From a phage, in sequence record PV467749.1: DNA of 64,000 nt; one strand, given 5' to 3'. Shown here piece after piece: positions 12,971-53,922 of the stretch (the stretch's first letter is position 1; every line of letters starts with the position of its first letter). The position numbers were made by a program, and so were the translations under genes. The notes below the pieces were generated by a model that had not been told where the DNA came from, ran no database searches, and worked only from the letters and a program-made list of their open reading frames with translations.

Positions 12971-12999
12971 ATTATACATAACCAAAAACATCATGTCAA
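12971..12999 (-). promoter_or_regulatory. consensus sigma70 promoter TTGACA-N17-TATAAT
   Basis: Minus strand cattGACAtgatgtttttggttatgTATAATacg, just downstream of capsid terminator and upstream of endonuclease gene 11841..12938. Confidence 0.65.
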
Positions 13000-19132: not shown

Positions 19133-19144
19133 TATTGTTCGTCC

Positions 19145-23372: not shown

Positions 23373-23858
23373 ATGAAGAAAAGATTAAAAGATAGTAAAG
23401 AAGCTGCAAACTATCGAAATGAATTACTAAAGAAGCAAAAAGGAATTGATCCTATAATTAAGGAACCAATAACTAAGCCAGTACTTGATCACTATCACTT
23501 CGAGAATCAACATTGTCGCGGAGTACTCCAGAATGAGATAAACGCCTTTGAGGGTAAGGTTTCCAACGCATGGAACCGATATGGAAAGCATTTAACTGAT
23601 ATGCCATTACATGAAGTACTAAGAAACCTTGCAGATTATCTTGAAAAGAACAATAATATCCCACTGGAAGAACAGGTGATTCATCACACGGCACTAACTG
23701 TGGATGTAAACAAGTTTAAAAGGCTCCCTGCAACGCGTCAGAACGAGATATTGGGGTTATGCGGTATAGAGCCATTACCTAATACAAAAGAACGCTCAAA
23801 GAGAGCTAGAGAGCTTATTAAGAAAGGAATTCTCAATATAAATGAATACAAAAAATGA
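23373..23858 (+). CDS. Endonuclease VII-family protein (T4 gp49-like resolvase)
   Basis: LDHYHFENQHCRGVLQNEINAFEG aligns with T4 endo VII LDHDHELNGPKAGKVRGLLCNLCNAAEG; HEVLRNLADYLEK vs YLEWLENLLTYL; zinc-ligand cysteines apparently absent. Confidence 0.7.
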   Translation: MKKRLKDSKEAANYRNELLKKQKGIDPIIKEPITKPVLDHYHFENQHCRGVLQNEINAFEGKVSNAWNRYGKHLTDMPLHEVLRNLADYLEKNNNIPLEEQVIHHTALTVDVNKFKRLPATRQNEILGLCGIEPLPNTKERSKRARELIKKGILNINEYKK

Positions 23859-24546
23859 TATTTTTATAGATAAAGCAAATATAAAACATAACAACAAATA
23901 TGAATATACATTAGTTGAGTATGTAAATAATTACACTAAAGTTAAAATTATATGTAAGAAACATGGTATGTTTTCACAAACTCCAAATCACCATTTAAAA
24001 GGAAGTGGATGTAATGAATGTTACTTAGAAAGCAAGCACGATACTAAAGATGACTTCATAAAAAAATCCATGAAAGTTCATGGTGAATTATATGATTACT
24101 CAAATGTGATATATAAATCTTCAAAGAAAAAAGTTGAAATTATATGCAATAAACATGGTTCTTTTTATCAGAGGCCACATGAACATATATCAGGTAAAGG
24201 TTGTTCAGAATGTGGAGTTGGTGGTTACAAGAGAAGTAAACCAGGTCGTTTATATGTATATGAAGTTTTACAAGACGACAAAACTATAGCATACAAATAC
24301 GGAATAACTAATGGTACTATTAATAATAGAAAATATTACCATGAGTATCACTCTAACTTAAAATTTAATTGTGTTTATGAACTATATGATGAAGATGGTA
24401 ATGTTCCATATAATATAGAAAAAGCAATAAAAGCTGGCATGAAAAGTGTTTTTTTATCAAAAACTATTTTAGAAGTTGGGTATACCGAAACGATAGAACC
24501 GTCTTTATATGAAGATTTGATTAATATAATAAAAAAAGGGAGCTAA
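23842..24546 (+). CDS. homing-endonuclease-like protein: two zinc-ribbon-like modules + GIY-YIG-like (T5orf172) domain
   Basis: Repeats YEYTLVEYVNNYTKVKIICKKHGMFSQTPNHHLKGSGCNEC and YDYSNVIYKSSKKKVEIICNKHGSFYQRPHEHISGKGCSEC; C-terminal PGRLYVYEV...KYGIT. Confidence 0.8.
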   Translation: MNTKNDIFIDKANIKHNNKYEYTLVEYVNNYTKVKIICKKHGMFSQTPNHHLKGSGCNECYLESKHDTKDDFIKKSMKVHGELYDYSNVIYKSSKKKVEIICNKHGSFYQRPHEHISGKGCSECGVGGYKRSKPGRLYVYEVLQDDKTIAYKYGITNGTINNRKYYHEYHSNLKFNCVYELYDEDGNVPYNIEKAIKAGMKSVFLSKTILEVGYTETIEPSLYEDLINIIKKGS

Positions 24547-26724: not shown

Positions 26725-27756
26725 TTATAGTGATCTGTAAATTTGGATTAGAAGATTTTTATCGAACATAGGTGAATCAATTTCCATGATTTGTTGTAAC
26801 ACAATCTCATCAACTGACTCAGTACTTTCAAAGCTTTCACCATCTTCAATAAGTTCTTTGATACTTTGCTTGCTAGTAACAACGTTAAACTCACGAATGT
26901 TATAAAGTTTAGTAAAAGTATCACGAATAAAACTAATCTCATCAGTAGTGATAGCAATATCAACTTGAACCTTTGAAATAGTATTGTCTTGAAGATAATA
27001 ACTTGGATCTGTTAATAGTTCTGAAAGTGTAAATGTTCTATATTTTGGTGCTTCTGACCAAGAATGGAAAGTTGGTTCTTTACCATGTTCTAAAATCATC
27101 ACACCTCTTGCATCATCCCATGTATCAGAAAAGTTATGTGGGAAACAGTTACCTGTGTAAATTACACGAGTTCCTTTGGATGTTGTTTTTGCTTGTCTCT
27201 TGTGGAAATGCCCACTAAAAACATACTCACAACCACCAAAAGAACCTTCAGTCTCTTTACCATGATCTGGCATCTCAACCATTTTATTGAGCAAGTAGCC
27301 AGGTAACTCTAAGTGACCAAAAACATACTTACTTTTAAGTTGAGGTAGAACTTTGTATTCATCTTCAATCATAAATGGAATGAAAGTACAATCATCAAAT
27401 GTTGTGATTTCATTAATGAACTCGATGTTCTCATAAACTTGTGCCATATTAATACTAGTAATGTCACGTTTATTTTTATGATACATGTCATGGTTCCCAA
27501 CTAAGAAGTAAACCTTATCAAAGTTGTCATTTAGTAATTGTAGAATTTGTAAACCATAGTTTAATGTTTGAATGTTAATATTACTGCGGTTATGGAAGTA
27601 ATCTCCCATAAACACGCATACAGTAATACCATTTTTCTTAGCAAGTTCAATCATAAACTTGATGAAGTTCAAACAATCTTCGTTGTGCTGCTTGCTGTTA
27701 TTCTTTAATCCTAAATGAATATCAGTAAATGTAATTGCTTTATCAAATAGAGCCAT
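26725..27756 (-). CDS. recombination/repair nuclease subunit, SbcD/Mre11-like phosphoesterase (T4 gp47-like)
   Basis: N-terminal FTDIHLG and GDYFH, GNHD phosphoesterase motifs; start moved from TTG to ATG (MALFDK) with AAAGGAAA RBS. Confidence 0.9.
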   Translation of the reverse strand: MALFDKAITFTDIHLGLKNNSKQHNEDCLNFIKFMIELAKKNGITVCVFMGDYFHNRSNINIQTLNYGLQILQLLNDNFDKVYFLVGNHDMYHKNKRDITSINMAQVYENIEFINEITTFDDCTFIPFMIEDEYKVLPQLKSKYVFGHLELPGYLLNKMVEMPDHGKETEGSFGGCEYVFSGHFHKRQAKTTSKGTRVIYTGNCFPHNFSDTWDDARGVMILEHGKEPTFHSWSEAPKYRTFTLSELLTDPSYYLQDNTISKVQVDIAITTDEISFIRDTFTKLYNIREFNVVTSKQSIKELIEDGESFESTESVDEIVLQQIMEIDSPMFDKNLLIQIYRSL

Positions 27757-28582
27757 CTTCGTTTTTCCTTTCAATCATGTTCATTTCAATTTCGATTTGA
27801 CGAGTGTGTGATGGTGTAAAACCATGCATCTCAAGTAAATCGTCTCGGATGTTACGAACATTTTTCTCACTATTAAGAATCGAACGGAAACTATTGTTAA
27901 CGAACGAAGTATAGTAAGAGAAAGGATTCAACTGTACTGCTGGTTTATCTTTTTTGTAAAGAATACTCTCTTTAAAGAGAAGTGCGTTTTTAACTAATTG
28001 TATTCTGGCATCACCCATCATTTCATCCAAATATGTATAGTTTCTATAGTTGGATTTGTGTGAGATTTCCTCTGCCAGTTTAATGAACATTTTACCTAGT
28101 TCATTAGTGATTTTACCATGAACAGTGCTGAATTCTCCGTCTTCAAGATCACCTTTCCAGTGAGAACGAACGACTTCGTACAGAATACCTTCTTCATCTA
28201 CAATGTAATGTTTGAATGGTTCAAAATTAACTCTTGTATCTGCTGGGATATGTTCATCGGTAATTACACGAATAACCACCTCATCGATAGGTACATCAGT
28301 CAGTACTAAATTGTGCTCATCTGCGTATTCCTTCGCTTTCTTCGCACTCATACCTTCTTTTTCACGAATTGCATCAAGCATTTCATTGTTGAGACGTTTA
28401 ATACGTGCTGCTTTAGCTTTATCTAAAAGTTCTGCTGTGATTTCGGATTCATCAAAAACGATATAATCGTACATACTGTAGCACTTATCAAGTAACCAGC
28501 AATATGAGATTTTACTTTTTTGTATCTCACGAAGTAAATCAGCATTGTTAAGATACTTTTTACGCTTCGGCCTATTTGTCAT
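27743..28582 (-). CDS. late-transcription sigma factor (T4 gp55-like) with large internal insertion
   Basis: KYLNNADLLREIQKSK vs T4 gp55 KYNYVNNKELLQAIIDWK; NPFSYYTSFVNNSFRSILNSEKN vs [23 protein letters not shown]; start at ATG (MTNRPKRKK) with GGAGAG RBS. Confidence 0.8.
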   Translation of the reverse strand: MTNRPKRKKYLNNADLLREIQKSKISYCWLLDKCYSMYDYIVFDESEITAELLDKAKAARIKRLNNEMLDAIREKEGMSAKKAKEYADEHNLVLTDVPIDEVVIRVITDEHIPADTRVNFEPFKHYIVDEEGILYEVVRSHWKGDLEDGEFSTVHGKITNELGKMFIKLAEEISHKSNYRNYTYLDEMMGDARIQLVKNALLFKESILYKKDKPAVQLNPFSYYTSFVNNSFRSILNSEKNVRNIRDDLLEMHGFTPSHTRQIEIEMNMIERKNEDGSI

Positions 28583-35712: not shown

Positions 35713-36477
35713 ATGAAATATGCAACAACCAGATCAACAAAATACAAATTTGTAACCAACGCCATTAGAGTGCATGGTATGCGTTATGATTATAGTATGG
35801 TTAAATATCATAATGCTAAAACAAAGGTGTGGATCGGATGTGAGAAGCATGGGTTTTTCCTACAAACACCAAATGACCATACATGTGGCAAAGGATGCAT
35901 GGAATGCTCGGTTGAGTATAATGCGAATCGTCAGAAAAGTCCACAGAACTTTATAAATTTTCTTAATAAGGCTAATTTAAAGTTTAGAAATAAATTTGAT
36001 TATAGCACAGTAGAATATGTTAATAATAAAACTCACATATCCATAATATGCCCAACACATGGGTCTTTTTTACAAAGACCTGATAATCATTTGTCAAGTA
36101 AGTATGGTTGTGAGAAATGTATGATTGAATCAACGCAATCAAAAGCAGTAACTGATATTGAAAAAATGATATCTTTCACTAATTATGTTAAAGAAAAGCG
36201 TTTTGATGATTGTAGAAACATATTAACTTTGCCATTTGATTTTTATATTGAAGATTTAAACTTGTGTATTGAATATGATGGTGAACAACACTTTCGATGT
36301 TCTGAACATTGGGGTGGTGACAAATCGCTAAAACAAACTCAACACAATGATAAAATTAAAAACACGTACTGTGCTGACCATGATATTAACTTACTTCGTA
36401 TCAAATACGATGAAGATCATATCATCGTACTAAAAAAGTACTTTTATGATAATTTTAACATAATATTAAAGGATTAA
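35713..36477 (+). CDS. homing-endonuclease-like protein: two zinc-ribbon-like modules + C-terminal PD-(D/E)xK (DUF559/Vsr-like) nuclease domain
   Basis: Repeats YDYSMVKYHNAKTKVWIGCEKHGFFLQTPNDHTCGKGCMEC and FDYSTVEYVNNKTHISIICPTHGSFLQRPDNHLSSKYGCEKC; C-terminal LCIEYDGEQHF...LLRIKYDE. Confidence 0.8.
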   Translation: MKYATTRSTKYKFVTNAIRVHGMRYDYSMVKYHNAKTKVWIGCEKHGFFLQTPNDHTCGKGCMECSVEYNANRQKSPQNFINFLNKANLKFRNKFDYSTVEYVNNKTHISIICPTHGSFLQRPDNHLSSKYGCEKCMIESTQSKAVTDIEKMISFTNYVKEKRFDDCRNILTLPFDFYIEDLNLCIEYDGEQHFRCSEHWGGDKSLKQTQHNDKIKNTYCADHDINLLRIKYDEDHIIVLKKYFYDNFNIILKD

Positions 36478-39987: not shown

Positions 39988-40023
39988 AATCAAATGAATG
40001 AACGAATTATATGGAGTCCAAAA

Positions 40024-43000
40024 ATGACTAATAATTTTAAGTTTCAACCTACACAGATGGCTGAAGCAGTACAGAAGAAGCTTTTCATAAAAAGATTGCC
40101 TGAGTGGATGCAAGGCTTAGAAGATATTCAGAAAGTCAGTGATGATGTTATCCAACAATGGTTTAATCCGGCTGAAAACGAATTAGTTGACGGCTACATT
40201 GGTGACATGGGTTCTCCGGCAGCAGCAGGGAACATCTTCTTACACGAGTCAACAGTCGCACGTCAACTATATCAGTTGTCCACTGCGTATGTCTCAAGAA
40301 ATGATGACTCCAGCATTCGTTCAATTCAATTTTATGATGATCTAGTTGGCTATATGAATCATTACGGGGCACTAACCGAAAATGAAAGCCGTTTGTTTAA
40401 TGGTAAGTTCTATTCATGGACCCCACCAATTAACCCTAACAAAATGAACAACTACAGTTCATATCTATGGGATTCCAAGAATAGCTATAATATCGCAACT
40501 CCAGATTATATTGTAATGGAACGTGGTGCAGAAAATGGAAACACTTGGTCACTACAAAACTTCTGGTACACATTAGGTGAAACTTTAGAAGATGGTACAA
40601 TCCTAACTGAAGAACTAATGCAAGATTCCCGTTTTGTTCGTGCTCGTGCTCCAATTATCGAATACAATAAAAATATCGAACTAATGAACTACGGTACTAA
40701 ATTCCGTGGGACAGTTGATTTGTTCTCTGATATTATTAAACCTGAAGATATCGTACAAAAAGATATTAACAGCGGTATACGTATTGATGGTATTATTCCA
40801 CAAGATGGTATGCGTATTCTTTTCACCAGTATTGGTAACAATGGTGAAAACAACCGAATTTATAAAGTATATGTTAAACGTATGCAAGATGGAACACGTG
40901 TGTATGGTCTAGCATTAGACCCAGACGAAGAATCTGAAAGCCGTCCGAGTGGTGAACCACAAGATGGTGACGTAGTTCTTATTATCAAAGGTAATGAATT
41001 TGGTAACAGTTCCATGTATTGGGACGGTTCTCATTGGATTCAAGCACAGTCTAAAACTTCTGTGAACGTATTTCCACAATTCCAATTGTATGACCGTAAT
41101 GGTGTTAAACTAAACAACACTACTACCTATCCATCAAGTACTTTTACTGGTTCTTCATTATTTGGTTTTAAAATTAACTATAATTATGCAACCGATAGCG
41201 TTTATGGTTATAACATTGAACTGGGTGATTACAATTATTACACCTATGAGAATTTCCTACAATCAACTCGTTATACCTACGAGCATTTGGGTGTGGAAGT
41301 TGAAATTGATGGACTATATTACTATAACGTAATTGGTGAAGGTAATACAATGAACCTAGAAACTGATTGGGTTCGTAGTACTGAATACTCCAAACAATAT
41401 GTTAAACAAACTCCACAGGTTGAACGTACAGTAATGTTCCGCGTGTTCAGTACTGTTTATGACATGGAAAGTTTCAAAGATCCAGTTGAAGGAATGTATG
41501 CTTATGTAATTGAAGTTGACAGAACTTATCAATATTACAAAGCAGAACGTGAAACATATCTTGATTGGCATGTTATCGTTGGTGATGGGGTACAAAGCGT
41601 TAAGTACAATCATACATTTGAATTGGCACAAAAAGTACTAGATAATTCTGATGATATTATCGAACTAGTTGTTGATGGTGTGGAAATAAAAGAATACACC
41701 AAAACTGTAGTTAATAATCAAGTACAAAGTATTACAATTGATAGCTCTGTTGATTTGGATGAAGATTCTGTTGTACAAATAAGAACTTATAGTAGCACTA
41801 TCACTCCTAATAAAGAGTTGGGTGCATATGAAGTTCCAATTAACCTACAAAATAACCCATATAATTCAAACATTGAATACATCAATCAAGGTGATTACAC
41901 CCTGCACTTCCAAGATATTATTCAAAAGAATATTACATCTGGTTCTGCTGATGACTTTAACAATTACGAAGAACGTTTGGCTGCTGGTTTGGTTAATAAT
42001 GGTGTAGGCACTAAAATTATTCAAAACGAAGCGTCCATGTTACCACTAATGGCACATACCGCTAATGAAGATATTGATTTGTTTGAATCAATCATGTTTA
42101 TGCAAGCAGAATACTTCCGCTTCATTAACAAGTTCAACACTCAAATGCTTCGTTTGTATGAAGAAGACCCAAGTGCTTTTCTTGGTAATAGTGCATCAAA
42201 CATCGTAGATGCGATTCTAACAGCTATTAATATGGGACGTGATAGTTCATTCCCATTCTACTATGACAACGTTGCAAGCACTGCTGGGTTTATTCGTGCA
42301 TTTGTCCCACCAACTCCACAGTTCTTGGGTATTTTGCAAGCTTATACACCACAAAAAGCAACATTCTTAACTGCTGGTAGTAAATCTAGCTGTTATAATA
42401 TCAGTCATACTGGTGTTATTTCAAAAGCATACCGTGTTATCAATGGTGTTGATAAAATGGATGACGTAGTTTTTGAATTGGAAAATCGTATCTTTAATAG
42501 TATTGACCTTACTTTCAAGGATATTGATTATAAACCAGTACTAAACAGTGAAGACCTATTCCCAACTCCATATTTCACTGGTACTGATTATAGTGCAGAA
42601 GAAAAGAAAACTCTATTACTACGTGGTTACATTAACTTCACAGCAACCAATGGTATTAGTAACAGTACTCATGATTATGATGCAAATAACTGGAGAACTT
42701 GGAACTATACTGGTAGTTATTATGTTGTTGATGGTCAACGTACTGAAATTCCTGCTCGTGGTTCATGGCGTGCAATCTATACTGACCAATATGGCACATA
42801 TCGTCCAGCAACCCATCCGTGGGAAATGATGGGCTTCTCTCAACGTCCTACTTGGTGGAACCAAGAATACGAACCAACCGCAGTTCAAGTTGGTGAACGT
42901 GAGGGTGATGTTGTTTATGTGTATGAAGCACTAGTAATGAATGAAAATGGTGATTTGGTCCCAAGTGGATTGTGGGATATTGATGGTACTATCGGTGACA

Positions 43001-46000
43001 GCAGCACTGGTACTATTTTGTCCGGTGAACGCCGTGGTCAATATGACAAATACAAGCGTTTCGGTGTACAGCCATTTAAAATCACTAAGACTGGCGAGAA
43101 AACCAGTACTGGTATTGATATTTGTGAAGTTGAGTATATTGCACCTGAAGTTTTAGGTCTTGTTAGTGGTAATTTAGATCATCGTGCAGAACCGTGGGCT
43201 TATGGTGACATGGGTGACATGGAATTCACTTACATGAACACTGCGATGTTTGCTTATGACCAAATGCTTCTTCTATACAAAGCAAAACCAGCACAGTTTG
43301 CAAACTATTACTGGGATACCCGTAATGATAACCTTAAACCAGTTTATACTGATGGTTCACAGTTCCTTTATGGTGAAACCCGTAAGCGTCTAAACTTTGA
43401 CAGTGCTACATTAGTACATGGTGAGAAAAATACCCGTACTATCGGTTATCAAATGTTTGTTAGTGACTATTTGATGTATCAGAATAAGAACATTACCACC
43501 AAATACGGTGACGTTGTTCGTTCTTCTTATGTCAATGTCGCTCACAAAATTGGTGGCTTTACTAAAGCAGACCAATTGACATTCACTGCTAAATCTTTCG
43601 GTTTGATTTCACAAGAAAACCAAACTATCGGTCTAGTTCGTTCCAATAACATTCGCGATGAGCAAATGAGTGCAGTAAAAATTACTTGGAATGGTAGTGC
43701 ATATCAAATTGATGGTTATGATTTAGTTGGTGCTAAATTTAAATATAAAATTCCAGTTAAAAATGGAAGAAAAGTAACTCTTAAATTGGAAGACAGAACT
43801 GTTGTTCATTACAATGAATGGAAATCTGAAGGTACATTAGAATATGGTAAAATATTCAATACATACCAAGAAGTTTATACTTTCATTTGTGGATATGGTG
43901 AATATCTAAAAGAACATGGCTGGATTTTTGAAGATGTAAATGATAGTGGTGCTCAACAAGACTGGACAACTATTGCTAAAGACTTTGTTATTTGGAGTCA
44001 GAATAATTTAAGTACTGGTGAGTTCATCTCCTGTACTCCAAGTGCAGCTAATGCTAAATTTGGTGCAGATTTTGGTTCAGTTCAATCTGTTACACAGAAC
44101 AGTGGTGGTGTTTGGTCACTACTCGATGATGAAAACCAAGGTATCCGTCAATATGAAATCGAAACTTCGCGTATCGGTAACGTATTCACAGTGAGAACTA
44201 CATCTGAATCACAAAAACGTATGGCGTTGATTCGTTTGAGCCTAAGTTCATATGAACACGCAGTTGTTTTTGATGATAAAACTATCTTTGGTGATTACAT
44301 TTACCAACCAACTTATGGTGCTATTCAAGAATTGATTAAAATGTATGGTTACATTACTGGGGCATGGACTGGTCGCCTACAAGCACCTGGTTTCATTATC
44401 CTAGAAGCAGGAACTTTACCATCATTTGAAAAATTAGTAACTGATTTTGAATTATATTATAATAGTGAAACTCCTGTGAGTGATGTTCAGCTTCAAGAGT
44501 TATCAAATCACTTGATTGGCTATCAAACTCGTGATTATCTACAACGTATGATTAGTAGTGATGTTAGTCGTGTTGATTTCTATAAAGGATTCATTCATGA
44601 CAAAGGTACTAACCAAGTAATGGAAAAAGTACTACGCGTTTCTAAATCTTACGACACTGATGAATATAAAGCACTACAGGAATGGGCATTTAAGATTGGC
44701 ACTTATGGTAATATCAATGGTAAGAAAAATCTACAATTTAAACTAATCAATGACCAATTTAAACAACAACCACAGATGGTTTCGTTTGATGTTAATGCTA
44801 CATCAAATGGTACTGGTAATGGTATTGTTTATTACGGTGAACAAGGGGTTGACTCACGCTGGATTACTCGTCCAAATGGTAAGTTTTCATTCCCAATGCG
44901 TAGTGGAAGAAGTGAGAATATCCAACTTCCAGACATTGGCCCAGTAACACTAGATGAAATTTCATACGTTACTAAAGATTTCAGTACTGCATATAATGAT
45001 CGTATCAATTATATGAATAACAGTGGTGAAATACCAGATTCTGTATGGATGTTTAAAGATGGTAATGATTTGTGGAATATTTTCGAACTAGTAGACACTG
45101 AAGTTGAGATGCTCTCTATCGTTCCAATTGAAAATACCGATGTATATGCAGAACAATTCTGTAAAGTAACTCTAAGTGATGATATCCCACTAAATGATGG
45201 TGATTATTATTACTTTGTTGATGAAACTAACTTTATGCCAGATACATTGACTATAGAAAGTCAATATTATACTGCGGGTAATGACCCTAGAGTTATGGTA
45301 GTTCCGTTTGACACTTCAATAACTATTGACTTCACTGATCCTGATACTCGCCCACGCTTGTATCGTTATGTTTCACGATTCAGTACTGAAGAGATGCGTC
45401 AGGAATACATTGACAGAAAATATAGTTTTAAAGCTCCACAAAGTACTTTGTTTGACCGCCCAACCACATATGATGAGCGTACTAACATTACTGCGTTGTA
45501 CCTAAACGTGTTTGACCCAATCAACGGTGTTATTCCTGGTGCAGCGATGCAGAACGTTACCTACACATCTCCAGTTGACCCAGCACAATACAACAGCAAT
45601 GGTGAATTGATTCAAGCATGGGGTGCTGATAAAGTTGGTCAGGTTTGGTGGAACACCAGCACTGCTTTCTACTTAGATTACACTCGTGCAATCTATGATG
45701 CTGATGGTAATGTGGATGTTGATGCAACAAATGAATATAAACGTTATAACTGGGGCAGATTGCTACCGCACAGTACTGTTGATGTTCTTGAATGGGTATG
45801 TTCGCCAGTGGAACCATATAACTGGGACAAATACTGTAAAGACGTTGCTAACAAAAATAAAAACAATACTATGTACCTACCAAGCGGAACCGCATTGGAA
45901 GATAATTATAGTACGTTCTTAGAATATGATAGCACAACTGATACTTATGTTACAAAATACTATTTCTGGGTTCGTGATACAATCTATGTACCACCATTGC

Positions 46001-49000
46001 ATTCCAGAACTAAATCTTGTACTGATATTGCTCGTATTATTAAAGAACCAGCACAGCTTAACATTCCTTGGTTTGCACCAATCAATGAAAGCTCGTTCAT
46101 TCTAAGTAATATGCAATTTGAAGTCAACGATGACACAAGTATTTTAACTGTTTCTTATTACATGGATAATACTGAAGTTATTAAACATGACCAGTATCAA
46201 TTATGTAAAGAAGGTGATAGCTATAACTTCAATCCATCAATCTGGACTTCTATGTGGAATTCTATGATTGGTCAAGAAACTACTGAATCAGGAACTGTTA
46301 TTGATTTACTATATCCTTTAGTACCAAACGGTTTAGGTTCTAATAAGACTTGGTTCCAAGATGTAATTGAAGCTCGTAGAAACTTTGTAGAAAGTGCAAA
46401 TAACTATTATCGCTCACAGAATATAACAACTAACACTGTTCTAATGGACGAAGTGTTTAATGTTAAAACTACTGAAGTTAACCCGAATGAAGTATCATAT
46501 CGTGTACTAACTTACAATAGTGAATTAGTCATTGCACCTGAAAGTGACAAGTTCAAAGAAAACGACGCAGTACTAGTAAGTACTAGTGGTGTATTACCTA
46601 ACCCACTATCAACTAGCTCTGTATATTTTGTGCATATTGATGCTAATGGTTATATTCATCTAATGAATAGTCCATCAAGTGCTGGTAGTGTGGTTACCAT
46701 TACATTGGAAAACCGTGGTGAAGGTCAACAGAAAATGATTAAACAATCAGACTATGTTGAAGCACTAGGAACTTCATTGGACATGACCCAGTACTGGTCA
46801 CTAGCAGATTGGTATGATATTGGTTACGATAAAAATACTGCATATACACAAGAATCCAGCCTAGAAGATGCAAACACTAAGAACTATCAAGTTGGTGACA
46901 TTATCAGAATTACAGATGTTGATGGCATCTGGACATTGTACATTAAAGCACAATCACGTGATTCAGTTTACTGGAAAGCAATTGGTCGTGAAAATAGTAC
47001 AGTTGAATTGAATGATATGTTATACGCTGACTATACAGTTCGTGATGCTAATGGTTCGTTGAGTAATCGTGAGATTAACGTTCGTAAAGCACTAGCTTTA
47101 TTGAAGAACTCATTCGACTTACATCAGAGTGAAATTGTGTTTGATATGGTTAAGTATGTTCACGTAGAACAAAGCGTTGTTGATTGGGTATTCAAAACAT
47201 CTTACATTTATATTGTAGGTTTAGAACAATCATTAGTACAGAACTATTCCAACGACAACTTGATTAATCAAATCGTTGAGTACTTTGAAGAAGTTAAACC
47301 ATATAGAACTAAGATTCGTTCCCAGATTGAACAGAAAACATCAGATGATGATTTAATTAAAGGTTTGTGTAATGATTTAGATCCTAATGGCTATATATTT
47401 GCAGATGGGACTTGGGTTAAAACGGAAAAAGACATTTGGGATTATGAATATGCTCAATTCAATGAGGTAACTCAACGTTGGGAGCAAGTTGGTGAATTGC
47501 CAAGTGATTTCGTAACACCTAATCGCCGTTTCCAAGAAATTGATGTTATCATGCACTACGACAACACTCAATGTAAACCAAATGATAATTTGGCAAGTGT
47601 TGATGTATTGGAAGAAGTGAATAAGAAATATCAATCTAATGCACAAGATGTTGTTAGTAATTTTGAATTACAACGTTACAAATATACATTCCCAGAATAC
47701 AGTGATGAAGATTTCGACCTATTGGTTGCTTATCAGATGCAATTGTATTACCCAGAATTGAACGTAACTCTAGGGATTGCTTACGGTGTTAACCAATGGT
47801 ATGCAGACCATGCAGATGATTTGGTAGCAACCGCAGAATTCACAGAAACGTTGAATCGTGTATATAAAGAATCAACACAAAATGAAATGTTTAATGACGT
47901 AAATCATTACGTTCAGTATAACACACTCTCTAACCGTTTGAAATTGTACACAGGTGCAGATGATGAAGTAATTCATGATGAAGTTGGATGTGGATTTAGT
48001 GGGTTAACCTATGATGATAATCCAAGCACCAGACTACCGTTTGGTTATGCATCCAGTACTGATTATAACTTTGGTTACTTTGAAGTTAGTAGTGAGTTGT
48101 ATAAAAAGTATGTTTCTTTAATTAAAGAAAACAATACTACTGCAACTGATGATGAAGTTAGAATTATACTTGAAGTTGAATATGGTGTTTATTCATATCG
48201 CCATGTAGATGAAGATGGAAATCAACGATTCTACAATGACGCAATTCATGTATTGTCCGGTATGCGTGGTTTGTATGACAAAGATGCTACCGACCATTAT
48301 GAAAAGGCTGAAGAAATACTAAGTAGAATGCCTATTGATATTCATGCATTTACTATGATGCCACGAAAATATGTTTATGTTAATGTTAATGGTGTATACG
48401 AGAGTATCCCAGATGACCAAAGCATTGATGATTTCATGGAAGACAAATTCATAACTGACGGTCAACTAGTTCAATTGGCAGAAATAAATCTTGATGACTT
48501 ACCTCTTGATAGAAATAACCCAATGTACAGTGATTATCAGCACATCCTAGATAGCATCACCGATGCTAAGTACTACGATGATATGAATGCATTTGATAAC
48601 CTAGCACTTGAATCACAAACTTCCGAGTTAAAATGGGAAGTTGAAGGTGACGAAGTAGATCCGTACATAATCGACATTTCTGATATTAACCCATCAGGAA
48701 GAAAGATTGGTCAGATTCGCTTCACAGTTGATGGTTATGGATTCAATAGTGTTTCACTAGTTCAATTGAGAGACAATAGTAGATATAAAACTGAAGGTAT
48801 GGTTATTATCAACCCTTATAAAACAACAGAAGCAATTGTTAGTATTCCTTCTTACGCTAAGATTGAAAATGATATTAGTAAATCATACAGTAAGTATGAT
48901 GAAAAATACTTCTATAAAATTAAATCAATTGTTAGTGATACAGAAGCTGAAGTAATTGACAATACCCTATCTGATGGTGATAAGGTTATGATATTCACAA

Positions 49001-49995
49001 CTGATGGTGAAGATTATGTGAGATACCAAAACAATGCATGGGAAACCATCTTGAGTGTATCAAAAATCAAAACTGACACCACACCAACCTTGTACACAGT
49101 AAGAAACACTGCGAACGGAACTGTAGAACTACTAGATAGTACTGGAGTTGTACTTCGTTATGATAACATCACTAAACAACAACAAAATGAACCAGCAATA
49201 CCTCTAGCATTGAACATCGTTCGTATTAGAACCTTTGCTGATCCAGAATTCTTGGTTGATGGTGTTAAGTTGTATGAAACAAATAGAAACTATGCTATCG
49301 ACGCAATGAACTATGAAGTATTCTACGACACAACACTATACGGTGGTTCTTATAATGATGGAATTACACCAGATGACGTTGATGTTTGGGTAGTGTCTAA
49401 CGAGATATTTGAAGTTGATGGTGTTACCATTGATAACGGATATAACTTACCAATTACTGGTGCAGGTGTTCTTAGTGAGTTAGTGAGAACCAAAATGACT
49501 GATAGTGTGGAAATTAACGTGTTCGAGTATGATGTTGGTATTATTCAACCAGTACTGAATACTGAAGGGGTATGGGAATATGCATATCCACTAGTTAGTG
49601 ATACATATATTGGTGTAGTTGGTGGAACAGTAACTAACATTACTGCTATCAGTGAAGAAAATGCTACTTATGTTTCACAACCAGATTCAGTTAGTCCATA
49701 TAGTGTTACTAATAATGTTCTATCTGGTGCTGGTGCAAGTATGAATGATATTATTTCTCTTGGTTTTGAAAAAGTTGAAGTACGATTTGCAAATAACTTA
49801 CTCCGTGGGGTAATGTATAGTGCAGAACACGACTTTAAAGAGAATGTGACATATTCATTTAATGGCTTGAACTTAGGTAAAGTTAATTTACTAAAACGTT
49901 ATAGTGTTAACAGTTATCCAATCGAACTATCTGTTTACTCCGATAGTTTGCAAATAAGTGGTAATGACATTAAAAATCTATTAGAAGTTAAATAA
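40024..49995 (+). CDS. giant virion-associated protein (~3,320 aa), probable baseplate/tail component
   Basis: Uninterrupted ~10-kb ORF; start chosen at ATG (MTNNFKF) with GGAG RBS and CATAAATA late-like box about 36 nt upstream; track ORF starts 30 nt earlier without RBS. Confidence 0.85.
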   Translation: MTNNFKFQPTQMAEAVQKKLFIKRLPEWMQGLEDIQKVSDDVIQQWFNPAENELVDGYIGDMGSPAAAGNIFLHESTVARQLYQLSTAYVSRNDDSSIRSIQFYDDLVGYMNHYGALTENESRLFNGKFYSWTPPINPNKMNNYSSYLWDSKNSYNIATPDYIVMERGAENGNTWSLQNFWYTLGETLEDGTILTEELMQDSRFVRARAPIIEYNKNIELMNYGTKFRGTVDLFSDIIKPEDIVQKDINSGIRIDGIIPQDGMRILFTSIGNNGENNRIYKVYVKRMQDGTRVYGLALDPDEESESRPSGEPQDGDVVLIIKGNEFGNSSMYWDGSHWIQAQSKTSVNVFPQFQLYDRNGVKLNNTTTYPSSTFTGSSLFGFKINYNYATDSVYGYNIELGDYNYYTYENFLQSTRYTYEHLGVEVEIDGLYYYNVIGEGNTMNLETDWVRSTEYSKQYVKQTPQVERTVMFRVFSTVYDMESFKDPVEGMYAYVIEVDRTYQYYKAERETYLDWHVIVGDGVQSVKYNHTFELAQKVLDNSDDIIELVVDGVEIKEYTKTVVNNQVQSITIDSSVDLDEDSVVQIRTYSSTITPNKELGAYEVPINLQNNPYNSNIEYINQGDYTLHFQDIIQKNITSGSADDFNNYEERLAAGLVNNGVGTKIIQNEASMLPLMAHTANEDIDLFESIMFMQAEYFRFINKFNTQMLRLYEEDPSAFLGNSASNIVDAILTAINMGRDSSFPFYYDNVASTAGFIRAFVPPTPQFLGILQAYTPQKATFLTAGSKSSCYNISHTGVISKAYRVINGVDKMDDVVFELENRIFNSIDLTFKDIDYKPVLNSEDLFPTPYFTGTDYSAEEKKTLLLRGYINFTATNGISNSTHDYDANNWRTWNYTGSYYVVDGQRTEIPARGSWRAIYTDQYGTYRPATHPWEMMGFSQRPTWWNQEYEPTAVQVGEREGDVVYVYEALVMNENGDLVPSGLWDIDGTIGDSSTGTILSGERRGQYDKYKRFGVQPFKITKTGEKTSTGIDICEVEYIAPEVLGLVSGNLDHRAEPWAYGDMGDMEFTYMNTAMFAYDQMLLLYKAKPAQFANYYWDTRNDNLKPVYTDGSQFLYGETRKRLNFDSATLVHGEKNTRTIGYQMFVSDYLMYQNKNITTKYGDVVRSSYVNVAHKIGGFTKADQLTFTAKSFGLISQENQTIGLVRSNNIRDEQMSAVKITWNGSAYQIDGYDLVGAKFKYKIPVKNGRKVTLKLEDRTVVHYNEWKSEGTLEYGKIFNTYQEVYTFICGYGEYLKEHGWIFEDVNDSGAQQDWTTIAKDFVIWSQNNLSTGEFISCTPSAANAKFGADFGSVQSVTQNSGGVWSLLDDENQGIRQYEIETSRIGNVFTVRTTSESQKRMALIRLSLSSYEHAVVFDDKTIFGDYIYQPTYGAIQELIKMYGYITGAWTGRLQAPGFIILEAGTLPSFEKLVTDFELYYNSETPVSDVQLQELSNHLIGYQTRDYLQRMISSDVSRVDFYKGFIHDKGTNQVMEKVLRVSKSYDTDEYKALQEWAFKIGTYGNINGKKNLQFKLINDQFKQQPQMVSFDVNATSNGTGNGIVYYGEQGVDSRWITRPNGKFSFPMRSGRSENIQLPDIGPVTLDEISYVTKDFSTAYNDRINYMNNSGEIPDSVWMFKDGNDLWNIFELVDTEVEMLSIVPIENTDVYAEQFCKVTLSDDIPLNDGDYYYFVDETNFMPDTLTIESQYYTAGNDPRVMVVPFDTSITIDFTDPDTRPRLYRYVSRFSTEEMRQEYIDRKYSFKAPQSTLFDRPTTYDERTNITALYLNVFDPINGVIPGAAMQNVTYTSPVDPAQYNSNGELIQAWGADKVGQVWWNTSTAFYLDYTRAIYDADGNVDVDATNEYKRYNWGRLLPHSTVDVLEWVCSPVEPYNWDKYCKDVANKNKNNTMYLPSGTALEDNYSTFLEYDSTTDTYVTKYYFWVRDTIYVPPLHSRTKSCTDIARIIKEPAQLNIPWFAPINESSFILSNMQFEVNDDTSILTVSYYMDNTEVIKHDQYQLCKEGDSYNFNPSIWTSMWNSMIGQETTESGTVIDLLYPLVPNGLGSNKTWFQDVIEARRNFVESANNYYRSQNITTNTVLMDEVFNVKTTEVNPNEVSYRVLTYNSELVIAPESDKFKENDAVLVSTSGVLPNPLSTSSVYFVHIDANGYIHLMNSPSSAGSVVTITLENRGEGQQKMIKQSDYVEALGTSLDMTQYWSLADWYDIGYDKNTAYTQESSLEDANTKNYQVGDIIRITDVDGIWTLYIKAQSRDSVYWKAIGRENSTVELNDMLYADYTVRDANGSLSNREINVRKALALLKNSFDLHQSEIVFDMVKYVHVEQSVVDWVFKTSYIYIVGLEQSLVQNYSNDNLINQIVEYFEEVKPYRTKIRSQIEQKTSDDDLIKGLCNDLDPNGYIFADGTWVKTEKDIWDYEYAQFNEVTQRWEQVGELPSDFVTPNRRFQEIDVIMHYDNTQCKPNDNLASVDVLEEVNKKYQSNAQDVVSNFELQRYKYTFPEYSDEDFDLLVAYQMQLYYPELNVTLGIAYGVNQWYADHADDLVATAEFTETLNRVYKESTQNEMFNDVNHYVQYNTLSNRLKLYTGADDEVIHDEVGCGFSGLTYDDNPSTRLPFGYASSTDYNFGYFEVSSELYKKYVSLIKENNTTATDDEVRIILEVEYGVYSYRHVDEDGNQRFYNDAIHVLSGMRGLYDKDATDHYEKAEEILSRMPIDIHAFTMMPRKYVYVNVNGVYESIPDDQSIDDFMEDKFITDGQLVQLAEINLDDLPLDRNNPMYSDYQHILDSITDAKYYDDMNAFDNLALESQTSELKWEVEGDEVDPYIIDISDINPSGRKIGQIRFTVDGYGFNSVSLVQLRDNSRYKTEGMVIINPYKTTEAIVSIPSYAKIENDISKSYSKYDEKYFYKIKSIVSDTEAEVIDNTLSDGDKVMIFTTDGEDYVRYQNNAWETILSVSKIKTDTTPTLYTVRNTANGTVELLDSTGVVLRYDNITKQQQNEPAIPLALNIVRIRTFADPEFLVDGVKLYETNRNYAIDAMNYEVFYDTTLYGGSYNDGITPDDVDVWVVSNEIFEVDGVTIDNGYNLPITGAGVLSELVRTKMTDSVEINVFEYDVGIIQPVLNTEGVWEYAYPLVSDTYIGVVGGTVTNITAISEENATYVSQPDSVSPYSVTNNVLSGAGASMNDIISLGFEKVEVRFANNLLRGVMYSAEHDFKENVTYSFNGLNLGKVNLLKRYSVNSYPIELSVYSDSLQISGNDIKNLLEVK

Positions 49996-49996
49996 C

Positions 49997-50030
49997 AAAA
50001 AGGAGAGCATTTGCTCTCCTTTTCTTTTTT
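49997..50030. terminator. bidirectional terminator between giant ORF and ClpA gene
   Basis: AAAAAGGAGAGC-ATTT-GCTCTCCTTTTCTTTTTT; near-identical stem to terminator at 3262. Confidence 0.8.
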
Positions 50031-52317
50031 ACGCAATAACTTTTTCTACTGCTTTAGTTCGTTTAGGTTTGATAGCCAATTTACCATCAATCACATCAAA
50101 CGTTACGTTACCACCATTAACCAGAGAACCACACAACATCTCTTTAGCTAGTGGAACACGGATGTTTTGCTCAATAGTGCGTTTCATTGGACGTGCACCC
50201 ATCCCAACTTTAACACCATTTGTTGCCAACCACTCACGTGCCGCTTTGGTTAGTGAAACTTTAACTTTGCGGTCTTTGATTTGTTCATTCAAACTTCCCA
50301 TGAACTTATCAATGATGCTGTCAATCGCTTCGCTGCTTAGGTCTTTGAATGTCACAATACTATCGATGCGGTTGATGAATTCAGGTGGCAAGAATGCTTT
50401 AATCGCTTTATCTTGTGCTGTATCACTACCGCTCATCCCAATACTACGCTTGGTTGAATCTGCTGCACCAAGGTTAGTTGTCATAATAACAGTTACGTTA
50501 TTGAAGTAAACAGTTTTACCTTGTGAACCAGTCAAACGTCCTTCGTCCAGAACCTGTAGGAAGGTTAGTAGTACTTTACGATCAGCTTTTTCGATTTCAT
50601 CAAGCAACAGTACTGCATTCGGGAACTGCTCAATCTTGTCGAGTAGCAGACCGTTACCGGAATCGTGACCAACATAGCCTGGAGGTGAACCAATCAGTTT
50701 AGCAACAGTATGTTCCTGTGAAAACTCGGACATATCGAAACGAATCAGTTCAGAGCCAGTTGCATCAGCCAGTGCTTTGGTAATTTCAGTTTTACCAGTA
50801 CCAGATGGCCCAACAAACATGAATGCACCTTGAACACTTGATTTATCACGCAGACCAGCACGAGCTACCATCACGTTATCAACCAGTTTCTGTACTGCTT
50901 CTTCTTGACCGTATACACGAGAACGTAGTGCATCTGGTAGATTACGCATACGCTCACTTTCAGTGCAAGCAACCACGTTAATATCTAGGTTTGCGATACC
51001 TGCAACAACTTCTTGAATCAGTGCAACAGTGATGATGTTATCATCAGTTTCACGAGAACGTACTTTCGCTGCCGCCGCATCCATTAGGTCGATTGCTTTG
51101 TCAGGGAAGTGTTTGTTCTTCAGGAACTTATCACTTAGTGTAATAACTGCATCCATTGCTTCAGTACTGAACTCTACGTTATGGAAAGTTTCATAAGTAG
51201 ATTTCAAACCATTCACAATCGCACGGGTTTCATCAATTGTTGGCTCAACTACATCAATTTTCATGAAACGGCGAGTTAGTGCACTATCTTTTTCGATGTT
51301 TTTACGATATTCATCGTAAGTTGTTGCACCGATTACACGAATCTCACCACGAGATAGTGCAGGTTTGAGCATGTTACTCATATCCATAGAACCGTTGCTT
51401 GCTGAACCAGCACCAACCATAATATGGATTTCATCGATGAACACAATAGTGTTTTCACGTTTCTTCAGTTCTTTGAGTAGGTTATCGATACGTTCTTCGA
51501 ACTCACCACGGTACTTAGTACCAGCAGTCAGTGCACCTACGTTCAGAGACAGAATTTCAACATCTTTAAGATGCTCTGGTACTTCACCATCAGCGATTGC
51601 CTGTGCTAGACCATCAATGATTTGAGTTTTACCAACACCAGCTTCACCAGTCAGGATGGCATTCTTCTTAGTCTTACGGGCCAGAGTTTCAATCAGTGCA
51701 GAAAGCTCTTTCTGGCGACCAATCATTGGGTCAAGTTTACCTTCTTTTGCAAGTGCGGTTAGGTTAGTGGTGTAATCTTCTAAACCTTTTTGTTTGGACG
51801 ATGGTTGCTGTTGTGCCACTTTTTTCTCCCCAGTTGGCTCATCACTAATGCTTTGAAGGTTGATTCCGTTGTCGATTGCTTCTACGTGCTTCTGTAGAGT
51901 TCGTGCTGCTTCAGTACAAGTGATACCCTCTTCACGCAATGCTGCTTCTAGTGCAGTATTTGGGAAGGACAAACACTCAAACAGTACAAAATAAGCATCA
52001 ATTGAGAAATCATCACGTTTAAGTTGCTCAATTACTGATTTCTTAGAAAGTTCCTGAACTACACGGTTCACGAGAAGTGATGTGCGGTTCGCTTCATCAC
52101 CATCAGCACTTTTAGGTGCATGTGGGAATGTTGTATTCTTCAGATATGCAATCAAACGACTGTGTAGGTTGTCTGCATCGATGTTCATATCTTCAAATAC
52201 TGCTTTGATGCTATCGATTGTCAGTACTGTAGCACTTAGATGGTCAATAGTCAAGAATGTATGACCCAGAGAAGTTGCCAGTTCGTCGCTTTTTTTGAAT
52301 AATTGGGTAAGATTCAT
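50029..52317 (-). CDS. clpA: ClpA-family AAA+ unfoldase (two ATPase domains plus N-domain)
   Basis: Walker A GEAGVGKT and GPSGTGKT; SIGM loop at the position of the ClpA IGL ClpP-docking loop; C-terminal MGARPMKRTIEQNIRVPLAKEMLCGSLVNGG matches E. coli ClpA; start at ATG (MNLTQLF) with AGGAGA RBS; consensus sigma70 promoter upstream. Confidence 0.9.
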   Translation of the reverse strand: MNLTQLFKKSDELATSLGHTFLTIDHLSATVLTIDSIKAVFEDMNIDADNLHSRLIAYLKNTTFPHAPKSADGDEANRTSLLVNRVVQELSKKSVIEQLKRDDFSIDAYFVLFECLSFPNTALEAALREEGITCTEAARTLQKHVEAIDNGINLQSISDEPTGEKKVAQQQPSSKQKGLEDYTTNLTALAKEGKLDPMIGRQKELSALIETLARKTKKNAILTGEAGVGKTQIIDGLAQAIADGEVPEHLKDVEILSLNVGALTAGTKYRGEFEERIDNLLKELKKRENTIVFIDEIHIMVGAGSASNGSMDMSNMLKPALSRGEIRVIGATTYDEYRKNIEKDSALTRRFMKIDVVEPTIDETRAIVNGLKSTYETFHNVEFSTEAMDAVITLSDKFLKNKHFPDKAIDLMDAAAAKVRSRETDDNIITVALIQEVVAGIANLDINVVACTESERMRNLPDALRSRVYGQEEAVQKLVDNVMVARAGLRDKSSVQGAFMFVGPSGTGKTEITKALADATGSELIRFDMSEFSQEHTVAKLIGSPPGYVGHDSGNGLLLDKIEQFPNAVLLLDEIEKADRKVLLTFLQVLDEGRLTGSQGKTVYFNNVTVIMTTNLGAADSTKRSIGMSGSDTAQDKAIKAFLPPEFINRIDSIVTFKDLSSEAIDSIIDKFMGSLNEQIKDRKVKVSLTKAAREWLATNGVKVGMGARPMKRTIEQNIRVPLAKEMLCGSLVNGGNVTFDVIDGKLAIKPKRTKAVEKVIA

Positions 52318-52355
52318 GTATTCTCCTAAATGAGTAGTCACTCTAATTAATAAAC

Positions 52356-52383
52356 ATTATATCACATTCTTTGCGTTTGTCAA
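52356..52383 (-). promoter_or_regulatory. consensus sigma70 promoter TTGACA-N16-TGTGATATAAT for ClpA gene
   Basis: Minus strand ccTTGACAaacgcaaagaatgTGaTATAATgtt about 40 nt upstream of ATG 52317. Confidence 0.65.
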
Positions 52384-52425: not shown

Positions 52426-53922
52426 ATGGCATATAGAATGTGGAAAAAAGGTAGAACCAATGATTACAAGTTCATTGACTCTGCCATAGCAGAACAATAC
52501 AACATCGGTGGTGTTGACATGTGGCTTTATGCCTATGTCGGACCAAAACAAGTCGCTGATAACACTGATTTATCATACGGCGGTGATTATTATGGATCAG
52601 ATAGTACCGTTGTGTCAAGCATTGGTGATTTAATTTTTGGTGACACTCCAAGTCGTAACTATAATCTCGAAGCTATCACCTTAAGTTGCGTCTACCAAGT
52701 CCAAGAAGCAACTCCTGACTTGAAAATCCCAGGATTGTTCTTCAATTTTAACACAATGGACATCACAATTCATTATAACACAATGATTCAGCGTTTGGGA
52801 AGAAAAATTATGCCAGGTGACGTAATCGAACTTCCTAACTTACGTGATTTTGATGTACTTGGTAAAGATTCTGGTTTAAACCGCTTCTATGTAGTACAAG
52901 ATGGGTTTAGAACGTCAGAAGGTTACTCAGTTACATGGCAACATCACATTTACAAACTCCGTGTTAAACCTCTTACTGATTCACCAGAGTACTCTGACCT
53001 TCTAGGTAACAATAACTACCCTGATGACCCAGATGATCCAAACAACGGCAATGGTAATACTGATGATGGCTCTTCAGAGAACAGCAGTTATGGTAATGAA
53101 ATGGATATTATGAACCGTATCATTATGCAAGCTGATGATGAAGTACCATACATTCATTTTACTAACGAACACTTGTTCGATGACAGACCAGATACTGTTG
53201 ATTTGTCTAAGTATATGCTAAATGGATACGAATTACCAGAGGAACCGGCAAATAAAATGTATTTCCTCAAGAAAACTTACCCAGTACTGAAAGAACTATC
53301 TAATGATACATGGATTTCTGTAGAAGTCAAGCGTGGAACAATCTTTCCTCGCAAACCGATGGATGGTGACTTCTTCTTTAAAGAAAACGAGGCTGATGTC
53401 ACTGGCTTCTCATTGTATCAATACGATAAATCTGCCAAAAAGTGGCTAAATTGTGATGTTGAGTATACTACAGAAAGCACACCACCACAAGGGGTTGATG
53501 ATTTTTATATTGAATACAAAGAACCACACATTTATCAGTACTTAAATGGTAAATGGGGAGAACCAGAAGTAACTTACGTTAATGACCCATTCACTTCTAA
53601 TAGTGTTTATGGAAATATCGATTCACAACAAGATTATCGTCCTAAGATTCCTCCAGCACGAGGTACAGTTCCTGAAGGTAACATGTTCCCAAGTGATGCA
53701 GTTGATGGTGATTACTACTATCGTACCGATTATACACCAGTAACCCTATGGGAATACAGTGCGTCCAAGAATTCTTGGGTGATTTTCGATTACGGTGGTA
53801 GAAAACCGTGGGAAGGTGCAGATCTTGCTCTAACAGAATTTGTTAATAGCCCGAACCGTGTGCCATTACATGATGCAGTTAAACCTAATACAGTGTATCG
53901 TATACATAAGGATTCAGAATGA
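52426..53922 (+). CDS. putative neck/tail-completion structural protein (position of gp13/gp14)
   Basis: Start at ATG (MAYRMWKK) with GGAGA RBS; track start is an upstream TTG; immediately precedes gp15-like gene. Confidence 0.65.
   Translation: MAYRMWKKGRTNDYKFIDSAIAEQYNIGGVDMWLYAYVGPKQVADNTDLSYGGDYYGSDSTVVSSIGDLIFGDTPSRNYNLEAITLSCVYQVQEATPDLKIPGLFFNFNTMDITIHYNTMIQRLGRKIMPGDVIELPNLRDFDVLGKDSGLNRFYVVQDGFRTSEGYSVTWQHHIYKLRVKPLTDSPEYSDLLGNNNYPDDPDDPNNGNGNTDDGSSENSSYGNEMDIMNRIIMQADDEVPYIHFTNEHLFDDRPDTVDLSKYMLNGYELPEEPANKMYFLKKTYPVLKELSNDTWISVEVKRGTIFPRKPMDGDFFFKENEADVTGFSLYQYDKSAKKWLNCDVEYTTESTPPQGVDDFYIEYKEPHIYQYLNGKWGEPEVTYVNDPFTSNSVYGNIDSQQDYRPKIPPARGTVPEGNMFPSDAVDGDYYYRTDYTPVTLWEYSASKNSWVIFDYGGRKPWEGADLALTEFVNSPNRVPLHDAVKPNTVYRIHKDSE

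Follow-up and report, generated by a model that had tools for sequence, protein, structure and literature searches.

The clpA gene and its product

The DNA analysed here, called the window, is a stretch of 64,000 nucleotides of a phage genome (sequence record PV467749.1), and its minus strand carries at 50029..52317 a clpA-like coding sequence of 762 amino acids, with an ATG start and the stop codon included. The gene was taken from the list of open reading frames (ORFs) and identified by its matches to TIGR02639, PHROG 4871, the structure 1ksf and the public cluster P0001; it is considered here together with the clpP gene of its closest relatives. The phage of origin is an Asteriusvirus (121Q/PBECO4-like) jumbo coliphage of the Rak2-like group and is not T4-like; these Asteriusvirus jumbo phages have genomes of 350-385 kb. 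The Escherichia phages EC.P1 and fEgEco12 are 99.6-99.7% identical to it over the clpA region, and 121Q, PBECO4 and phAPEC6 share about 84% DNA identity there. A preliminary description of this DNA had remarked that T4 itself has no such gene, which is beside the point, since the 121Q/PBECO4-like jumbo phages keep the gene and it is already annotated in them. The genome of TH47, unannotated and assembled here, was searched with E. coli proteins; the segments of the window that align to it are 97-99% identical.

The family of the protein was established by profile and structure comparisons. The NCBIfam ClpA profile TIGR02639 covers residues 3-741 in one unbroken stretch (4.4e-226), and the ClpB, ClpV, ClpK and ClpG profiles match in two separate stretches each, because the protein does not have the middle domain (M-domain) of those families. 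PHROG 4871 is matched with E=0, the representative of P0001 (69 member sequences) is 100% identical to the protein, and the best match among solved structures is E. coli ClpA (1ksf, 4e-178 with HMMER), in an alignment free of large gaps. Pfam recognizes AAA, AAA_lid_9, AAA_2 (3e-49) and ClpB_D2-small (1e-21). The scores remain, however, under the NCBIfam equivalog cutoffs, with 752.5 against 993.15 for TIGR02639 and 649.5 against 1350 for NF008263. ClpA is the best-matching family, yet the protein belongs to a diverged phage subfamily (PHROG 4871) and is not an equivalog of bacterial ClpA. Assignment to ClpB or ClpC was ruled out by the absence of an M-domain together with the one-stretch match to the ClpA profile. 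An alternative GTG start at 52341 would give 770 amino acids, but such a start would be only some 8 nt away from the predicted transcription start and lacks a Shine-Dalgarno sequence; the start of the 762-residue protein is the one annotated in relatives.

The N-domain, a double Clp repeat (aa 1-150; 51868..52317, minus strand), was delimited with Clp_N (PF02861), an AlphaFold2 (AF2) model and alignments. When the N-terminal fragment was searched alone, repeat 1 (aa 11-59) scored 23.6 bits against a cutoff of 20.7, and repeat 2 has diverged beyond recognition by Pfam; the AF2 model places eight helices in two sets. Identity in this domain is 20% to E. coli ClpA and 41-86% inside the phage clade, to which the motif FVLFECLSFPNTALEAAL is common. 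In comparison with E. coli ClpA, the phage N-domain has a longer insert between the repeats and is followed by a longer linker to D1. In the 1ksf alignment T20 and D25 of the phage protein stand at the positions of E23 and E28 of E. coli ClpA, which we take to be ClpS contact residues.

The D1 AAA+ module (about aa 179-440; 50998..51783, minus strand) was located by Pfam AAA and AAA_lid_9 and by its motifs: Walker A GEAGVGKT at aa 224 (51625-51648), the pore loop KYRG at aa 268, Walker B FIDEIH at aa 293 and the arginine fingers RRF. The D2 module with D2-small (about aa 441-750; 50068..50997, minus strand), located by AAA_2, ClpB_D2-small and motifs, carries Walker A GPSGTGKT at aa 503 (50788-50811), the pore loop GYVG at aa 547, Walker B LLLDEIEK at aa 570 and sensor-2 GARPM. 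Alignments of 27 and 45 homologues show no variation in Walker A and B, the KYR and GYVG pore loops, the arginine fingers or sensor-2, and identity to E. coli ClpA is 50% in D1 and 45% in D2. The AF2 model of the whole protein (predicted local distance difference test, pLDDT, of 79) contains neither an M-domain nor an insertion in D1, and superposes on the ClpA chains of ClpAP cryo-electron microscopy complexes with target template modelling (TM) scores of 0.84-0.90 and 46-47% identity. The motifs quoted in the preliminary description, GEAGVGKT, GPSGTGKT and SIGM, were all found, at aa 224, 503 and 625-628.

The phage protein thus resembles E. coli ClpA (1ksf, 6w1z, 7uiv) in the order N-domain, D1, D2 and D2-small, in the absence of an M-domain, in all motifs and in the position of the putative docking loop. 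It differs in having IGM instead of IGL, in being encoded monocistronically under a phage promoter, and in that no clpS lies adjacent or in the TH47 genome. ClpB/Hsp104 and ClpC are likewise class I Hsp100 proteins with two AAA+ rings, and give strong profile and structure matches. In ClpB, however, there is a coiled-coil M-domain and the ClpP loop is missing, whereas the phage protein has the putative loop and no insertion in D1, and ClpC possesses a short M-domain and uses MecA. The earlier reading as a full-length ClpA with both AAA+ modules is borne out by the profiles, the 1ksf match, the intact motifs and a putative docking tripeptide compatible with ClpP, and the possibility considered with it, of a ClpB-like protein lacking the loop, does not hold, given that the loop is there and the M-domain is not. 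Because of the profile, structure and motif evidence, the 762-residue protein should be a full-length, active double-ring AAA+ unfoldase of the ClpA type, not of the ClpB type.

The gene is preceded by a sigma70 promoter (52356..52383, minus strand) that matches the consensus at 12/12 positions, with a -35 TTGACA (52383-52378), a 16-nt spacer, a TG extension (52364-52363; the bases just before the -10 read TGA) and a -10 TATAAT (52361-52356), and transcription is predicted to start near 52349. The notation TTGACA-N16-TGTGATATAAT given previously is a little inexact, the 16 nt being the distance between the two hexamers. A Shine-Dalgarno sequence AGGAGA (52322..52327, minus strand) is located 4 nt upstream of the ATG, and GGAG-type sites occupy the same place in relatives. 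At the other end, a bidirectional intrinsic terminator (49997..50024, both strands; -16.6 and -17.7 kcal/mol) is common to clpA and to the convergent gene of a 3333-residue virion protein; its hairpin begins 4 nt past the clpA stop and 2 nt past the stop of that gene. As clpA alone is on the minus strand here, with a plus-strand virion gene on either side, it is monocistronic, and the unit described earlier, with its consensus sigma70 promoter and bidirectional terminator, is confirmed by the sequence and recurs with the same layout in relatives. Perfect 12/12 sigma70 sites on both strands of the window number two, against 0.13 expected from shuffles, and both are intergenic and properly positioned before a gene. 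The other one (TTGACA-17-TATAAT, 12971-12999, minus strand) precedes a homing-endonuclease ORF at 11841-12938 that is absent from TH47.

An extended -10 (TGnTATAAT) is found 35-48 nt upstream of the clpA ATG in fEgEco12, 121Q, phAPEC6, Muenster, 7t3, CBB and BF, that is, in all of the relatives compared, with -35 matches ranging from 3/6 to 6/6. Directly 3' of the clpA stop, all six relatives examined have a hairpin bordered by runs of A and T. The intergenic DNA around clpA has otherwise diverged among them; the retention of these two elements in such DNA argues that clpA is a stand-alone transcription unit under selection.

A phage ClpP and the putative docking interface

The absence of a ClpP gene noted in the preliminary description is true of the window but not of the genome, since the near-identical TH47, EC.P1 and fEgEco12 encode a ClpP about 87 kb away. 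The gene, recognized by its CLP_protease match, lies at 6001-6696 of the fEgEco12 sequence L018 and at 27276-27971 of TH47, where it is on the same strand as clpA; the distance of ~87 kb is that between clpP and clpA in fEgEco12. Hence the earlier step from a missing ClpP to a pairing with host ClpP falls, as its premise reflects only where the window ends, and the near-identical genomes themselves encode a ClpP whose catalytic triad is intact.

The TH47 protein has 231 residues, is 36% identical to E. coli ClpP (2e-34) and matches Pfam CLP_protease (PF00574) with 1.3e-41. Its counterparts are 100% identical in EC.P1, 99.6% in fEgEco12, 96% in 121Q and PBECO4, 70-75% in Klebsiella phages and 67-70% in CBB, GAP32, BF and Erwinia phages, and the catalytic S97, H122 and D171 are kept in 6/6 phage ClpPs aligned, which represent six lineages. 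Across the enterobacterial jumbo-phage clade clpP co-occurs with clpA: the records with ClpA and with ClpP number, respectively, 33 and 34 for Escherichia, 11 and 10 for Klebsiella, 10 and 8 for Salmonella, and 8 and 8 for Erwinia phages. TH47 contains one Clp ATPase, which is ClpA, and one clear ClpP; neither ClpX, ClpS, a PA5oct-type DnaJ nor a second Clp ATPase was found in its genome by tblastn and phmmer. The RefSeq label of the phage ClpP, head maturation protease, was not adopted. It derives from PHROG 94, and a separate T4-type prohead protease is encoded by the capsid genes; moreover, clpP stands among metabolic genes (DNA ligase, phosphatase, dCMP deaminase) and its product aligns over the full length with bacterial ClpP. 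Two further peptidase-like genes lie within a few kb of clpP in the same fEgEco12 sequence: a diverged ClpP-like gene at 9628-10236 (CLP_protease 20.6 bits, just above the cutoff; PHROG 26024), and a gene for an HslV-family peptidase at 10586-11179 (PHROG 1040, 2.6e-22), whose N-terminus reads MTCIIAH.

The promoters of clpA and clpP in fEgEco12 are near-identical and can be written together as T[TA]GACA-16-TGTGATATAAT; that of clpP consists of TAGACA, a 16-nt spacer including the TG, and TATAAT, and has the 11-mer TGTGATATAAT in common with the clpA promoter. In 121Q and Muenster clpP also has its own promoter, of the clpA type, which thus precedes clpP in the E. coli and Klebsiella phages. 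Downstream of clpP a terminator hairpin is present in fEgEco12 and Muenster. The TH47 genome has 23 promoters that combine an extended -10 with a -35 of at least 5/6 matches, against about one expected, all of them on the strand of clpA and clpP, as are 13/13 copies of the 11-mer. These promoters and copies are scattered genome-wide. Within the block at 275-300 kb, which holds clpA, no promoter of this class other than that of clpA is present. The virion module presents another signal: exact T4-late-promoter-like motifs TATAAATA occur 18-48 nt upstream of four of its genes (28671 and 34716 on the plus strand; 15515 and 14306 on the minus strand), which suggests that, apart from the sigma70 class of clpA, there is a late promoter class. 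In PA5oct the host RNA polymerase is needed throughout infection and early transcription is almost exclusively one-stranded (PMC7318152). Given the promoter class, the strand bias and the behaviour of PA5oct, early or middle expression of clpA by the host polymerase is a reasonable inference. The literature searched contained no Asteriusvirus transcriptome, and the PA5oct RNA sequencing paper makes no mention of the clpA-like gene.

The putative ClpP-docking loop of phage ClpA contains S-I-G-M (aa 625-628; 50434..50445, minus strand). HMMER and MAFFT alignments agree in placing it where ClpA has its IGL loop, as the preliminary description had proposed: IGM (aa 626-628) aligns on IGL 617-619 of E. 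coli ClpA in 1ksf ('krsigmsgsd' against 'rksiglihqd' in the HMMER alignment). The tripeptide fits the pattern [LIV]-G-[FLM], methionine being a conservative variant at the third position of the stricter [LIV]-G-[FL], and in the AF2 model the loop (aa 624-630) is of low pLDDT, flexible or disordered. Its sequence depends on the lineage: IGM in the window phage and in 121Q, IGV in Klebsiella phages, LGM, VGM or MGM in the group of CBB, BF and GAP32, and IGF in PA5oct and in cellular ClpA; IGL, too, occurs among the relatives. In the 7t3 group (Salmonella 7t3 and Erwinia Hallingskeid; homologues P0044 and P0053) it is MNM or MSM, the glycine being gone. The ClpP of 7t3 (18664-19341 of sequence L023) keeps an intact triad despite the glycine-less tripeptide of its ClpA.

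The other side of the interface has changed as well. The pocket of E. coli ClpP that receives the IGL loop is formed by L23, L48, F49, A52, Y60, Y62, F82, I90, M92, F112, L114 and L189 (bioRxiv 10.1101/820209). In phage ClpPs only 2-5 of these 12 residues are identical to those of E. coli, and the sets vary by phage lineage; Y60T, F82S, F112L and L114G are among the changes in the fEgEco12 type, and most replacements are hydrophobic or small. All six phage ClpP lineages conserve in addition a C-terminal extension of about 22 amino acids, ...LVKRRGGVEEWV, also given as ...GPRNEEGKYLVKRRGGVEEWV, which begins right after the C-terminal strand that lines the docking pocket in E. coli ClpP. The ClpP of enterobacterial hosts is highly conserved and near-identical among them. 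An interface that drifts on both sides fits less well with a partner held fixed by conserved host ClpP, and we take this drift to favour the phage ClpP in the role of partner, although the observation is anecdotal and the independent lineages are few. The PA5oct-like phages, which keep IGF and mostly have no ClpP match (match counts only), would fit the same logic.

Origin and gene neighbourhood

Phage ClpA is 43% identical to E. coli K-12 ClpA over the whole protein. The GC content at third codon positions (GC3) of the phage gene is 0.32, against 0.57 in host clpA and 0.26 in a neighbouring phage gene. In a search of 5.8 billion proteins the matches ran continuously from 100% to 53% identity (at least 838 bits), in many cases from contigs about 350 kb long, and then fell sharply to 45% and to the ~40% of cellular gammaproteobacterial ClpA. 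The neighbour-joining tree groups the jumbo-phage ClpAs in one clade with a long stem, with PA5oct and one metagenomic sequence at its base. The copies in EC.P1 and fEgEco12 are 99.9% identical to that of the window, and tblastn identities are 93% for the 121Q type, 74-75% for Klebsiella phages, 69% for Salmonella 7t3 and Erwinia Hallingskeid, about 61% for CBB, BF, GAP32 and Yersinia, Erwinia and Xanthomonas phages, and 41% for PA5oct-like phages; the gene is kept in phages of six host genera. Identity, GC3, the score gap and the monophyletic clade together mark phage clpA as an old, vertically inherited gene of a jumbo-phage-specific clade. The phylogenetic check suggested earlier speaks likewise against a recent capture from the host, which is rejected on the same grounds.

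In fEgEco12, 121Q, phAPEC6, Muenster, 7t3, CBB and BF (7/7) clpA is antisense between two virion genes. On one side is the gene of a virion protein of about 3300 amino acids, and on the other that of a virion protein of about 500 amino acids followed by the tail-sheath-stabiliser gene. In the window the convergent ORF (39994-49995, plus strand) encodes 3333 residues that match PHROG 10938, 'virion structural protein', over the full length. It is the counterpart of phAPEC6 gp245 (382 kDa), detected in virions by mass spectrometry, and it adjoins clpA in all enterobacterial relatives. The divergent ORF (52426-53922, plus strand) encodes a 498-residue protein with a match to PHROG 11591, 'virion structural protein'; in 121Q and CBB it carries a structural label, but the homologue in phAPEC6, gp247, is absent from the virion mass-spectrometry list of that phage. 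In PA5oct the clpA-like gene is downstream of a DnaJ-like gene on the same strand, and in Atu_ph07 it is reported in the literature to adjoin a DnaJ-like gene.

ClpA itself as a virion or ejected protein was considered and found unsupported. The phAPEC6 homologue gp246c is absent from the table of 62 virion proteins identified by mass spectrometry, in which its neighbours gp245 and gp248 appear, and the PA5oct homologue carries no flag from electrospray ionization tandem mass spectrometry (ESI-MS/MS), with which adjacent structural proteins are flagged.

Possible partners and roles of phage ClpA

We favour by a modest preference the reading in which phage ClpA and phage ClpP make up a ClpAP protease encoded by the phage, whose docking interface and N-domain have diverged. 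In such a scheme, host sigma70 RNA polymerase would transcribe clpA and clpP from the same extended -10 class, before or independently of the late virion genes. Phage ClpA would form hexamers through which the KYR and GYVG pore loops would thread substrates, and the IGM loop would dock onto the phage ClpP encoded ~87 kb away, giving a protease owned by the phage. The diverged but clade-conserved N-domain would pick the substrates, which might be host regulatory or defence proteins, or might be supplied by quality control of the very large proteome of the phage itself. On the sequence evidence gathered here, the phage ClpP would be a more economical partner than the host ClpP.

Several observations weigh against this pairing. 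The two genes are ~87 kb apart, and clpP has no promoter of its own in 7t3, CBB and BF. Pseudomonas phage records include 11 with ClpA and at most three with ClpP (match counts only), and the PA5oct-like ClpA keeps the canonical IGF loop. The low pocket identity (2-5/12) about equals the overall identity of the phage ClpP to that of E. coli (~36%), and the phage ClpP could be one that takes no IGL-type loops at all. From the other side, the methionine of IGM is conservative, so that docking onto host ClpP is possible, and the MNM and MSM of the 7t3 group might mean that docking is dispensable. The CBB ClpP was seen in virion mass spectrometry, although as one peptide with 4.5% coverage, which is weak evidence. 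The literature searched contains nothing on interaction, expression or phenotype for any member of the clade.

The partner proposed in the preliminary description was host ClpP, and a hybrid protease of this kind would remodel the host proteome or remove defence and regulatory proteins early in infection. The agreement of IGM with [LIV]-G-[FLM] and its alignment on IGL are consistent with this, as is a consensus sigma70 promoter, which implies the unmodified host polymerase; and the PA5oct-like phages, with an IGF-bearing ClpA and mostly no ClpP match, make it probable that such a pairing occurs somewhere in the wider family. For the present phage we nevertheless consider it unlikely, given that this phage has a ClpP that looks active, accompanies clpA across the clade and lies behind the same promoter type, and given a tripeptide that drifts by lineage, even to the loss of glycine, despite the conservation of enterobacterial ClpP. 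Unlikely to about the same degree is that phage ClpA acts without any ClpP, as a stand-alone unfoldase or chaperone in virion morphogenesis, serving for instance the 3333-residue baseplate-associated protein or other giant structural proteins. Iyer et al. 2021 listed ClpA and ClpX among the AAA+ chaperones of jumbo phages as possible translocases or assembly factors (PMC7824862). The position beside virion genes strictly kept from fEgEco12 to CBB and BF, the adjoining DnaJ-like gene in PA5oct and Atu_ph07 and the lost loop glycine of the 7t3 group all point the same way. However, clpA runs antisense to the virion genes, has a sigma70 promoter and a terminator to itself and is not co-transcribed with them, and its position may reflect just the collinearity of the structural module. 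Most lineages keep a docking loop, whereas stand-alone chaperones of the ClpB type lack it and have an M-domain, which the phage protein does not. As to the earlier notion of a gene universally present in relatives with a known assembly role, the universal presence was found and the known assembly role was not.

That phage clpA would be a recently captured host clpA, carried as a passenger with no phage-specific role, is highly improbable. The family resemblance is all that favours it, and against it stand the 43% identity to the K-12 protein, the difference in GC3, the gap in matches from 53% to about 40%, the monophyletic phage clade spread over six host genera, and the conservation of position, promoter and terminator. 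A more far-reaching form of the phage-encoded ClpAP, which we put forward only as a speculation with limited chances, is that the 121Q/Rak2-like system is orthogonal to that of the host. In it loop, pocket and ClpP extension would have co-diverged, insulating the pair from host ClpX, ClpA and ClpP, and the re-specialised N-domain, produced from an early-class promoter, would target host defence or regulatory proteins. If true, this would be a phage-encoded targeted-degradation system for host takeover.

The gene and its conservation are already known, with a ClpA-like annotation in dozens of records and mentions in the literature. The ClpA-like gene shows high conservation in most Rak2-like phages (PMC6102473), and 121Q gp581, phAPEC6 gp246c, RaK2_00069, the GAP32 protein, CBB gp235 and Atu_ph07 gp292 are products of the same gene, with the same neighbours, promoter type and terminator; nothing essential differs among them. 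What is gained here is the correction that a phage ClpP exists, which together with the common promoter class and the diverged interface leads to a concrete pairing hypothesis. The literature searched held no experimental study of phage ClpA or ClpP, only remarks from comparative genomics. The ClpXP of phage G and the seven Clp-family genes of Atu_ph07 are comparable in that large phages bring both an unfoldase and ClpP, and those sets are known from annotation or proteomics only. In phage G, however, the clpX and clpP genes are adjacent and both proteins are in virions, whereas here the ATPase is of the ClpA type, the genes are ~87 kb apart and the ATPase is undetected in the virions of relatives. 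If the pair is real, giant phages would bring their own regulated proteolysis machine, beyond hijacking or inhibiting host proteases, and the proteins it degrades would indicate which host functions have to be removed or which phage proteins turned over.

The window also contains three HNH/homing-endonuclease ORFs, at 11841-12938 (minus strand), 23842-24546 (plus strand) and 35713-36477 (plus strand), which match PHROG 681 and 559 (E between 1e-76 and 4e-50) and have the look of mobile insertions. The three coincide exactly with window segments that have no counterpart in the 97-99% identical TH47, and the last of them is located between the gp25-like and baseplate-wedge genes, where fEgEco12 has only a short gap.

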